Source of the DNA: Nanobdellota archaeon
Lineage (GTDB): Archaea > Nanobdellota > Nanobdellia > SCGC-AAA011-G17 > GW2011-AR20
Direction of reading: 5' to 3'
Assembly (NCBI GenBank): GCA_018819375.1
Contig: JAHJQH010000071.1
Span: forward strand, 1-24,408
DNA: 24,408 nt
A program made the position numbers and the translations under genes. Positions 2,223 to 20,467 of the stretch are shown here, piece by piece. Numbering within the stretch: the first letter of the stretch is position 1; each line of letters begins with the position of its first letter. Below the pieces are notes generated by a model that was not told the DNA's origin, searched no databases, and saw nothing but the letters and a program-made list of their open reading frames with translations.

Positions 2223-2825
2223 ATGAAAAATAAGATTATGATATTTAGTCATTTTAAGGGGGGAATAATAAAAAAGTGTTTTGGGGTCGGTTTAGATGCA
2301 GGAGTTCTTATTGCACTCATAACAAATCCAATAAAATCAAAGGAAATTTTACTTGAAGATTTGCAGGAACAAAAAGATTTGCTTTATACTCATCCTATAG
2401 CTTTCCAAGAAGCAAGAAGAAGATTATACAGGGGATTTAATTATTCTTGGGAAGAATCATTAAAGGTTCTAAAGAATCTCAAAAAGGAGTTTAACATTAA
2501 AGAAGTTTCATTAATAAAAAATAATCCAAAATTAAAAGAGCTTGATAAGTTATGTGAAAAAGATAATTGTGATGCTGGGGACAATGACAAAAAGATAATA
2601 TCCGACTTTAAAGAATCAGGTATTTTCCTCACTTATTCCAACAACAATCATTTTATTCGAGCATCAAAACTCATAGGATTAAATTCAAGAAAATTTCCAT
2701 CAGATGATAAAATCCTAAAAAAGAAGTATTATGACGCCTTGATTAACAAACCTAAACAAAAGAGGGGTCGGAGTAGATTTCGAAAGCCTTTTCTCGGTTT
2801 CCTTTTGCCTTTTCTAAGGATTTAA
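2223..2825 (+). CDS. PIN-domain (VapC-like) nuclease
   Basis: VGLDAGVLIAL (first acidic site), PIAFQEA, GDNDKKII and LTYSNNNHF in PIN-fold order. Confidence 0.6.
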   Translation: MKNKIMIFSHFKGGIIKKCFGVGLDAGVLIALITNPIKSKEILLEDLQEQKDLLYTHPIAFQEARRRLYRGFNYSWEESLKVLKNLKKEFNIKEVSLIKNNPKLKELDKLCEKDNCDAGDNDKKIISDFKESGIFLTYSNNNHFIRASKLIGLNSRKFPSDDKILKKKYYDALINKPKQKRGRSRFRKPFLGFLLPFLRI

Positions 2826-3075
2826 ACCAGAACTCTTTTCTATCCTGCTCTATCCCTTCTGTTACCGCTTTCATCTTTCTTTCATCCACATTCAACATAG
2901 ACCAAAGTTCAAAGTTTATAAGTGCTTTTTGCCTTTTCACTCCCTCTTGGACAATTTCCTTGACAATATCCTTAAAAACAGGATTATCCTGAATATCCTG
3001 AACAATTCTTTGTTCTATTTCCTCTATATAAGTATTAGAAAATATTTCGATATTGTTGTTTAAAATGGATTCCAT
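2752..3075 (-). CDS. Hypothetical acidic helical protein, convergent with and overlapping the PIN gene by 74 bp
   Basis: 107-aa ORF with protein-like composition. Confidence 0.6.
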   Translation of the reverse strand: MESILNNNIEIFSNTYIEEIEQRIVQDIQDNPVFKDIVKEIVQEGVKRQKALINFELWSMLNVDERKMKAVTEGIEQDRKEFWFKSLEKAKGNREKAFEIYSDPSFV

Positions 3076-3186
3076 ATGAATAACCTACTTATCTGCTTAT
3101 AACACAAACATATCAATTGTTGTTACATTAACATCAATATTGATAGTATATAAAGTTTATTACTACGCAAAATATAGGTGATTCCA

Positions 3187-3309
3187 TCACTTCTTCTCAA
3201 AAAGTTCAACCTGGTCGCTGTCTTCCAAGATATGCTCCAAACCAACTTGTTAACTACTGAATCTTGCACTCTTTCCCCAAACCCTCGCATACCTGAACTT
3301 CTTAATAAA
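3187..3309 (-). pseudogene. Decayed C-terminal TGS-domain fragment of a DRG/Obg GTPase
   Basis: Reverse strand translates FIKKFRYARVWGKSARFSS*QVGLEHILEDSDQVELFEKK*, matching the end of 4831..5739 (YARIWGPSAKFDGQQVGMEHILEDGDVVELFENR); one in-frame TAA; no start codon. Confidence 0.85.
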
Positions 3310-3431
3310 AAATATGCCAAGAAAGAGTTAAACAAGCGAAAACACCCATAAAAAAGTCCAAATGGTCTTTTTATTCCATCTTAAAAGATACTCACTCTTT
3401 CTTCTCATTTAGTAAATTATTCATTTTAAAC

Positions 3432-18872: not shown

Positions 18873-19742
18873 TTACCCTAACTTATTAAAAAGCCCTTCA
18901 AGTCCATCCAATTCCCTGCATTTATTAATTCTTTCCCTTATTCTTGCACCACCCCGCATCCCTTTTGTAAACAAAATTGCATGATTCCGGATATTGTTAA
19001 AATTCACTCCAAACTTCTTGGCTAATTCCAAATAATCCAAAAATATTTCCTTGCTGTCACAGTTATTCTTACCAGCAAATATTCTTGGATTTTTAAGTGC
19101 AGTCCTGCCAATCATCACATAGTCACACCCTGTTTCTTTCATCATTTTTTCAGCATCCTCAGTATTATTCACGTCACCATTCCCAATCACGACAATATCA
19201 ACATTATCCCCTACTTCCTTAATCACTTTCCAGTCAGATTTTCCAGAATATCCCTGCTTGACAGTCCGTCCATGCACAATAATCGCACTTCCCCCGCACC
19301 TTTCAATAATCTTGGCAATCTCGACAACACCCCTGCATTTTCTCACTTTCACACTAACAGGAATATTCAGGCCATCAACAAGAGCAGAAATAATATTCTT
19401 AATCTCTTTCTTGTTCCTAAGTAAAGCAGCACCGTAACCACCCTGCATTATGTCAACACGAGGGCAGCCCATATTCACATCTATCACATTCACCTTTTTT
19501 TCAAACTTCTTTCCAGCCTCAAGCATAACACCAGCATTCTTGCCAAACAACTGCAGTCCAACAGGTTTTTCTTCATTAACTAACTGCACCTCAACCCCGC
19601 CATTAACAACTGCGTTTGCACTAATCATCTCAGTAAAACACATCCCAGCTCCAAATCTGCGGCACAAAACCCTAAAAGCAACATCACTATATCCGACCAT
19701 AGGTGCAAGAATCAATTTTGATTTCAGTTGAGGGAATTTCAT
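18873..19742 (-). CDS. dus: tRNA-dihydrouridine synthase (DusB-like)
   Basis: LAPMVG, TEMIS, QLFG, DVNMGCP, HGRT, GNGDV, MIGR motifs. Confidence 0.94.
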   Translation of the reverse strand: MKFPQLKSKLILAPMVGYSDVAFRVLCRRFGAGMCFTEMISANAVVNGGVEVQLVNEEKPVGLQLFGKNAGVMLEAGKKFEKKVNVIDVNMGCPRVDIMQGGYGAALLRNKKEIKNIISALVDGLNIPVSVKVRKCRGVVEIAKIIERCGGSAIIVHGRTVKQGYSGKSDWKVIKEVGDNVDIVVIGNGDVNNTEDAEKMMKETGCDYVMIGRTALKNPRIFAGKNNCDSKEIFLDYLELAKKFGVNFNNIRNHAILFTKGMRGGARIRERINKCRELDGLEGLFNKLG

Positions 19743-19894
19743 TTTAAAAATTTCTCCGCCTTCAGTTTATGTTTAGGGTTATTAAAACCAATAATTTCAT
19801 ACCACTCCTTTAATTGTGATACTCCATTCATTTGGATTCTTACTTTCCCTTTACCAATATCATAAACTCCAAATCTAAAACCATAGTTTCTCAA
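19739..19894 (-). pseudogene. C-terminal remnant of a LAGLIDADG-type homing endonuclease domain (frame open to 19999)
   Basis: LRNYGF...VRIQMNG.SQLKEWYEIIGFNNPKHKLK resembles the end of archaeal/intein LAGLIDADG domains; no LAGLIDADG helix upstream; stop overlaps the dus ATG. Confidence 0.6.
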
Positions 19895-19961
19895 TGAAAA
19901 ACATGAATTAATGAAACATTCAAAATTTATAAAAGTAATTAGGTGGTGGGCTGATCTGATA

Positions 19962-20160
19962 TAGCGGGAGAAGGATTTGAACCTCCGACCTTTACCCAAT
20001 CCAAAGAAGATTCCTTAGGACTTCCGGGTTTCGCCGAGGGCAAGAAATGCCTAACCCCATATGAGCCTTCCGCACTAGATAGTTTCCTAATCTAATTCGA
20101 CGGGCACTCCTGGCTGCCCCATCCATATAGACAAAACACAATTTTTGAGTTTCACTCGCT
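19962..20160 (-). tRNA. Initiator tRNA-Met(CAT) with four introns: 20125-20156 (4/5), 20068-20097 (29/30), 20030-20059 (37/38), 19992-20023 (43/44); CCA not encoded
   Basis: Joined exons give AGCGGGA TG GGGC AGCCAGGAGT GCCC G TCGGG CT CAT AA CCCGG AGGTC GGAGG TTCAAAT CCTTC TCCCGCT A (75 nt): complete cloverleaf, A1-U72, three G-C pairs at 29-31/39-41. Confidence 0.9.
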
Positions 20161-20275: not shown

Positions 20276-20467
20276 ATGGTACAAAAAATAAAAGAAAACA
20301 AACATTCGAAATTTGTGGAGTATATGATTGAAAAAGCATCAAAACAAGATTCAACGCCGCGACCGCACAATCATGGTGGTATAGATCAAAAAGAGATAGA
20401 AAAACTGTCAAGAGAAATAAGAGATAAAGGATCAGCAAGAAAACAAAAAGAAAAAACTGGGTTCTAA
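20276..20467 (+). CDS. Small charged hypothetical protein
   Basis: 63-aa ORF ending 1 nt before the rnhB start. Confidence 0.55.
   Translation: MVQKIKENKHSKFVEYMIEKASKQDSTPRPHNHGGIDQKEIEKLSREIRDKGSARKQKEKTGF

Follow-up and report, generated by a model that had tools for sequence, protein, structure and literature searches.

Two archaeal single-chain LAGLIDADG enzymes, I-Tsp061I (2dch) and I-DmoI (2vs7), are encoded in BHB introns of rRNA. We know of no means by which the short BHB introns of archaeal tRNA genes move. Homing-endonuclease genes are said, after Goddard and Burt in 1999, to have a life cycle in which they invade, become fixed, degenerate, and are lost. Homing by the T4 endonuclease SegB favours the inheritance of its tRNA region. 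SegB itself is a free-standing GIY-YIG endonuclease encoded in a tRNA gene cluster (PMC13096335). Collaborative (trans) homing has been described for free-standing F-CphI, beside an ORF-less psbA intron in cyanophage S-PM2, and, as a second case, for T4 mobE with the nrdB intron (PMC6083498, PMC2790892).

The locus described here resembles each of these systems in part. Like I-Tsp061I and I-DmoI, the intact relatives of our fragment are proteins of ~200 amino acids from archaeal hosts, with the same fold and two motifs carrying a conserved Asp, and they are associated with protein-spliced (BHB) introns. However, they share only 17–18% identity with these enzymes, their genes are free-standing beside a tRNA gene rather than intron-borne, and our copy is the last quarter only. 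As with F-CphI and mobE, a free-standing endonuclease gene lies next to a conserved gene with an ORF-less intron, and the two co-occur. By contrast, F-CphI and mobE act on group I introns in phage protein genes, are HNH or Endo VII-type enzymes, and have been shown experimentally to home in this way, whereas the DPANN family combines BHB introns, a cellular tRNA gene, and LAGLIDADG enzymes, and its link to the introns is one of co-occurrence. SegB shares the setting of a free-standing homing endonuclease among tRNA genes but differs in nuclease family, phage host, and lack of introns. In the terms of the life cycle, our locus would represent the degeneration stage, and intact, truncated, and empty sites occur among its relatives. 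A departure from that cycle is that the introns accompanying the endonuclease gene seem to survive it.

We analyzed a stretch of 24,408 nt (the window) from contig JAHJQH010000071.1 of a Nanobdellota archaeon, whose assembly is 706 kb and 84.6% complete. The relevant features, in the direction of transcription, are as follows.

19962..20160 (-): tRNA-iMet (initiator tRNA) gene, with exons 20160-20157, 20124-20098, 20067-20061, 20030-20024, and 19991-19962, from spliced alignment and ARAGORN
20068..20097 (-): intron 29/30, in the anticodon stem; the position paired with clade-1 endonuclease genes
19992..20023 (-): intron 43/44; the position paired with clade-2a endonuclease genes
19895..20014 (-): upstream portion of the open frame (end of intron 4, tRNA 3' exon, spacer), without homology
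19895..19961 (-): 67-nt spacer from the tRNA 3' end to the relic, with a TATA-like box and a presumed deletion junction
19934-19925 (-): TATA-like box TTTTATAAAT in the spacer
19742..19894 (-): relic of a clade-1 gene for a putative LAGLIDADG homing endonuclease, comprising its last 51 codons, from homology (61–69% identity)
19739..19742 (-): ATGA overlap of the relic's TGA (19741-19739) and the dus ATG (19742-19740), from the sequence
18873..19742 (-): dus, tRNA dihydrouridine synthase, the downstream neighbor (PF01207, E 8.9e-69)

In the initiator tRNA gene, automated spliced alignment to an intronless initiator-tRNA profile places four introns (32, 30, 30, and 32 nt) after tRNA positions 4, 29, 36/37, and 43, with a possible error of 1–3 nt. 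The joined exons are recognized by ARAGORN as a 75-nt tRNA-Met (CAT), while the unspliced gene was missed by ARAGORN and stayed below threshold in Rfam. With introns allowed, ARAGORN called no more than 16 tRNA genes across the assembly (706 kb, 84.6% complete), none of them within the window; non-canonical introns are probably common in the tRNA genes of this organism. On one side of tRNA-iMet is an RNase HII gene; between them, a 63-amino-acid Lys/Glu-rich ORF at 20276-20467 (+), which has no Pfam match, stops a single base short of the RNase HII start codon. On the other side is dus, the start of which is backed by relatives' alignments beginning at residue 1. The order iMet-dus also occurs in four related genomes. 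Two of these have no endonuclease gene between the two (G019, with a 92-nt gap, and G008), and G036 has a clade-2 endonuclease gene there on the opposite strand; the fourth is G037.

The earlier note on this DNA described a frame open from within the last intron through the tRNA 3' exon, quoted its C-terminal peptide, and placed its stop over the dus ATG, and all of this is present. The frame measures 91 codons from stop to stop, opens at ~20014 within the last intron (20023-19992), crosses the 3' exon (19991-19962), and ends in ...RIQMNGVSQLKEWYEIIGFNNPKHKLKAEKFLK; the ORF within it (19739..19999, -) has a TTG start and 86 amino acids. Its reading as a homing-endonuclease remnant holds for 19894-19742. 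The continuation into the 3' exon and intron is incidental and, like the spacer (examined in every frame), shows no homology upstream of 19894.

Compared with 5.8 billion proteins, of which only those longer than the fragment were considered, the relic matched seven proteins of 126–223 amino acids (E 7.5e-15 to 9e-10; 61–69% identity over 79–96% of a 53-amino-acid query). Six of the seven contain LAGLIDADG_2 (PF03161) and LAGLIDADG_3 (PF14528), and one comes from a Nanoarchaeota MAG. In an alignment with the relatives of 200–223 amino acids, the relic fills the last ~51 columns only and shows no change at any of the residues that are invariant in them. The family HMM matches it at positions 156-204 (E 1e-22), and BLASTP aligns all 51 residues with residues 153-203 of the 203-amino-acid relative P0001 at 65% identity. 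In the LAGLIDADG profile search that the earlier note proposed as a check, the full-length homologs passed the Pfam cut-offs, while the fragment of 53–86 amino acids gave no LAGLIDADG match; Rfam gave nothing useful either. Sub-threshold Pfam matches of the fragment to Rep_fac-A_3 and DUF1122 were treated as noise, and a tRNA-splicing-endonuclease match in a PDB sequence search (E 0.086) was not significant.

These comparisons identify the fragment as the C-terminal quarter of a putative single-chain LAGLIDADG homing endonuclease. In the P0001 model, the relic's segment is the last beta-hairpin and two C-terminal helices of a two-domain fold, and both LAGLIDADG motifs (family D19 and D120) fall in the part that is absent. 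The fragment is thus a remnant of a family member and, because both catalytic motifs are missing, is incapable of nuclease function. No stop or frameshift interrupts the 51 codons, which would reflect either a recent deletion or some remaining constraint. The relic is also the most AT-rich stretch of its neighborhood, at 28–31% GC vs. ~42% in dus. When the seven relatives were searched by tblastn against all 706 kb of the assembly, 19894-19742 was the only place with homology, and we found no other gene pieces in any frame or orientation of the window and no full-length copy elsewhere in the assembly. An exact-match metagenome scan for an intact copy from the same species, using the tRNA 3' exon and intron end, returned 0 matches. 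The genome's own other LAGLIDADG domains, which lie in inteins (ORFs of 700–1350 amino acids) and in a 364-amino-acid ORF on contig C60, are <30% identical to the relic and were rejected as its source. That C60 frame (G000:C60:8141-9232; L006 982-2073, +) has 364 codons, scores 27 bits against LAGLIDADG_3, and lies outside any long host ORF; no tRNA was detected beside it.

The intact relatives have sequence and fold features of homing endonucleases of the single-chain type; their predicted site-specific cleavage and homing have indirect signs in the filled, empty, and truncated sites described below. Four of them (P0001, P0002, P0003, and P0007) score 27.6–44.8 bits against LAGLIDADG_2 and LAGLIDADG_3, for which the Pfam cut-offs are 22.5–25, and the two motifs include D19 and D120, which are invariant in 38 intact sequences. 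The family profile had no match among PDB sequences. The predicted structure of P0001 (pLDDT 97.2, pTM 0.92) has a double alpha-beta-beta-alpha-beta-beta-alpha architecture, that is, the two domains expected of a DNA-binding saddle. Its best PDB match in Foldseek is the archaeal intron-encoded I-Tsp061I (2dch; E 2.9e-12, TM 0.72), and every PDB match listed for it has the LAGLIDADG fold, almost all of them being endonucleases. The earlier note would have counted the lack of any profile or structural match as a refutation; with a relative's model, a structural match was found.

Among 60 relatives of the window's genome, seven contain close full-length homologs (49–63% identity), which adjoin a tRNA with an initiator-type acceptor end wherever the flank is readable. 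A wider scan of one genome per prokaryotic species yielded 80 LAGLIDADG loci, 57 of them close-family and 23 more distant, in Woesearchaeota, Nanoarchaeota, Aenigmatarchaeota, Nanohaloarchaea, and Micrarchaeota MAGs. Three clades, 1, 2a, and 2b, are resolved in the endonuclease tree, with support of 100, 84, and 99, respectively. The relic scores 75 bits against P0001 of clade 1 and 35 bits against a clade-2 protein, and is assigned to clade 1.

Directly beside tRNA-iMet lie 47 of the 57 close-family (clade-1) loci, as well as 22 of 30 clade-2 loci. None of the 23 more distant loci is adjacent to iMet, and most of these adjoin other tRNA genes. The full-length homologs that the earlier note proposed to look for beside or inside tRNA-iMet introns do exist: the genes adjoin the iMet gene, and they are not within its introns because introns of 13–45 nt are too short to hold them. 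This layout, with an endonuclease gene next to a tRNA gene whose introns contain no ORF, is that expected of a collaborative homing unit. We found no paper on LAGLIDADG genes beside DPANN tRNA genes, which is not proof that none exists.

The 47 iMet-linked loci fall into three arrangements. In 23, the two genes converge. Here, no more than 28 nt (~60 nt at the truncated L154) separate the endonuclease homology from the tRNA 3' end, and in many cases the ORF continues antisense into the tRNA. In 18, the endonuclease gene follows the tRNA gene on the same strand after a gap of 60–321 nt, which in the intact relatives contains a TATA box ahead of the start codon. The remaining six are divergent. 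The window's order of tRNA, 67 nt, and relic on one strand is the second of these in frequency, truncated at the 5' end. An origin of the relic from the convergent arrangement by inversion was rejected, as 18 intact loci share the window's own order.

We consider it probable that the relic is a decayed free-standing clade-1 gene of this initiator-tRNA-linked LAGLIDADG family. The ancestral order here would have been tRNA-iMet, the endonuclease's own promoter, the endonuclease, and then dus. An internal deletion of ~450 nt would have removed ~150 codons, including both LAGLIDADG motifs, and left behind the TATA-like box, the 67-nt spacer, and the last 51 codons. We read this part of the window as an old promoter followed by 51 codons because intact relatives with the same order have a TATA-bearing spacer of 60–321 nt; the spacer is probably what remains of the endonuclease gene's promoter and 5' end. 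The fragment would now be, at most, upstream or leader sequence for dus.

The earlier note also linked the remnant to the accumulation of introns in this tRNA. Co-occurrence statistics favor that link and do not prove it. Of 65 parsed iMet genes linked to an endonuclease, 61 have introns, and their lengths range from 13 to 45 nt. The positions differ among clades as follows.

Intron 29/30: clade 1, 38 of 44; clade 2a, 8 of 14; clade 2b, 1 of 7
Intron 43/44: clade 1, 11 of 44; clade 2a, 11 of 14; clade 2b, 2 of 7
Intron 53/54: clade 1, 6 of 44; clade 2a, 2 of 14; clade 2b, 6 of 7

Fisher tests of these associations gave p values of 2e-4 to 7e-4 that ignore shared ancestry, and the association represents few independent events because there are only three clades. 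In an unbiased set of the window's relatives, the 29/30 intron was found in all eight iMets linked to a clade-1 gene vs. 6 of 20 others, and 7 of the 20 relatives without such a gene have an intronless iMet. An endonuclease of a given clade and a particular intron thus appear to co-occur, which is a pattern and not proof. The 29/30 intron in 6 of 20 iMets without a clade-1 gene suggests that introns can outlast the endonuclease gene, as they seem to have done in our window. The window's tRNA has the 29/30 intron that goes with its clade-1 relic. It has a 43/44 intron as well, yet we found no clade-2 gene or trace of one in the window.

The explanation that we tentatively favor for the family is that endonucleases and introns spread together by collaborative homing. 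The enzyme would cut initiator-tRNA loci that have no endonuclease gene, and repair would copy the endonuclease gene together with the neighboring intron-bearing tRNA gene, so that short BHB introns spread alongside the endonuclease. Because the intron positions are clade-specific, an intron may interrupt the cleavage site of its own clade's enzyme. The endonuclease would later decay while the intron remained, and repeated invasions by different clades would ratchet up the number of introns. In its most specific and somewhat more speculative form, each clade would cut the intronless iMet near 29/30, 43/44, or 53/54, the matching intron would block cutting and be co-copied, and successive invasions would build the four- and five-intron iMets of our window and of archaeon GW2011_AR20.

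Several observations sit poorly with this immunity model. Intact endonuclease genes occur beside intronless iMets in three clade-1 loci (L140, L144, and L146) and one clade-2a locus (L196), and the model must also accommodate the 29/30 introns found without a clade-1 gene. Moreover, the three orientations of the gene, and its occurrence both before and after the tRNA, are difficult to reconcile with a single precise homing site. The same four intact genes would also fit a target that spans the end of the tRNA gene and its flank, that is, the endonuclease gene's own insertion point, with introns having no role in immunity and merely hitchhiking in the co-converted tRNA gene. The close approach of the endonuclease homology to the tRNA 3' end in the 23 convergent loci is in keeping with such a target, as is the convergent gene of G040, whose TAG stop complements the tRNA's terminal CTA. 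However, this would leave the clade-specific intron positions unexplained, and the gene lies upstream of the tRNA in six loci, including ~35 nt upstream of the 5' end in G012. We regard a tRNA-end target as somewhat unlikely.

The distribution of the gene bears on a further alternative, in which the family is a domesticated, vertically inherited partner of iMet (e.g., a regulator or a helper in processing multi-intron precursors) and the window records its loss. The same neighbor gene across several DPANN phyla and the conserved motif CACTGGACA upstream of many family genes would fit that history. Still, the gene is patchy, being present at ~8 of 31 initiator-tRNA loci among the window's relatives, and a single genus shows both states: G012 has a filled site and a three-intron iMet, while G023 has an empty site and an intronless iMet. 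The flanks of these two align; the cassette measures 679 nt in G012, against 99 nt at the corresponding place in G023, and lies upstream of the tRNA, ~35 nt from its 5' end. At least seven further loci contain truncated copies (L131, L152-154, L156, L158, and L160), of which L158, beside iMet, retains HMM positions 119-203 only and resembles our relic. No relics were found at E ≤ 1 beside the iMets of relatives that have no endonuclease gene. Filled, empty, and truncated sites are the pattern expected of a homing-endonuclease gene that invades, decays, and is lost, whereas domestication does not account for the three orientations or the many truncated copies. The catalytic Asp is also invariant, as in active nucleases, and the window's genome and many others manage without the gene. 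Domestication is therefore, in our estimation, improbable.

The intactness of the 51 codons and of all conserved residues raises the question of whether the ORF of 51–86 amino acids is still a working small protein, or whether the fragment is kept as a functional dus leader or promoter. A gene caller does predict a 51-amino-acid product starting at TTG 19894 (P0008), and a TATA-like box 36 nt upstream and a stop that overlaps the dus ATG could suit a leader or promoter. However, the frame has no in-frame ATG, the segment makes up just the final hairpin and helices of a fold that has two domains, and there is no family of similar short proteins, the only other short match being a partial protein, P0005 (126 amino acids, on 1.4-kb contigs). 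As for a leader, G019 expresses dus from a 92-nt gap that has no such sequence. We consider a retained function of either kind very improbable. Finally, a chance open frame without real homology, which the sub-threshold and unrelated Pfam and PDB sequence matches of the fragment might have suggested, is refuted by an E value of 7.5e-15 in 5.8 billion proteins and the 65% identity over all 51 residues, and we give it practically no credence.

A decayed, iMet-linked clade-1 gene thus remains our reading of the relic, which per se is an ordinary dead selfish gene. Its value is that it places a four-intron iMet within a widespread DPANN pattern and contributes the decay stage, in which introns appear to persist after the endonuclease gene is lost. 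This bears on how short BHB introns reach odd tRNA positions and on why some genes gather several of them. If true, clade-specific cutting combined with blocking by introns would offer a general mechanism by which non-canonical archaeal tRNA introns arise and spread.

We also observed several features of related loci. The motif CACTGGACA is conserved upstream of ~35 of the 80 LAGLIDADG genes, including those of distant subfamilies (L105-L182). It lies 50–310 nt upstream of the start codons, often as a tandem pair with GCG and a TATA box after it, and is otherwise nearly missing from those loci. The window does not contain it, and the window's genome has nine chance-like matches, none of them in a promoter context. 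Distant LAGLIDADG genes of ~200 codons in DPANN genomes (L161-L182 and L017-L028) are nearly always within ~130 nt of a tRNA gene of another identity; these tRNA genes are mostly intron-bearing, and the identities that ARAGORN assigns to such genes are unreliable. At L166, ARAGORN called a tRNA with an 841-nt "intron" containing a LAGLIDADG ORF.

The convergent endonuclease ORFs end in or at the tRNA gene. The one at L081 (G040; 868-1503) is the G040 gene named above, with a TAG stop complementary to the last three bases of the tRNA, CTA, and those at L098 (G011; 2807-3358) and L062 (G051; 900-1583) have frames that continue 30–80 nt antisense into the tRNA. The iMet of G040 has LAGLIDADG-type ORFs on both flanks: the clade-1 gene converges on its 3' end, and an upstream, weaker match lies on the tRNA's strand (L081, 1708-2583, -; HMM positions 35-127, E 4e-5).

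In the complete genome of archaeon GW2011_AR20 (CP010426), the iMet gene (L095:3639-3823, +) is 185 nt long and apparently contains five introns, after positions 15, 29, 37, 44, and 59. Convergent with it is a clade-1 endonuclease ORF whose frame extends antisense into the tRNA gene. The same genome has a second LAGLIDADG gene (L095:2570-3548, -), the ORF of which ends inside the 5' exon of another tRNA. It is located between a 32-nt duplicate of the 5' part of that tRNA (3547) and the full intron-bearing tRNA (from 2732), and it looks like an insertion that brought a replacement gene end with it.
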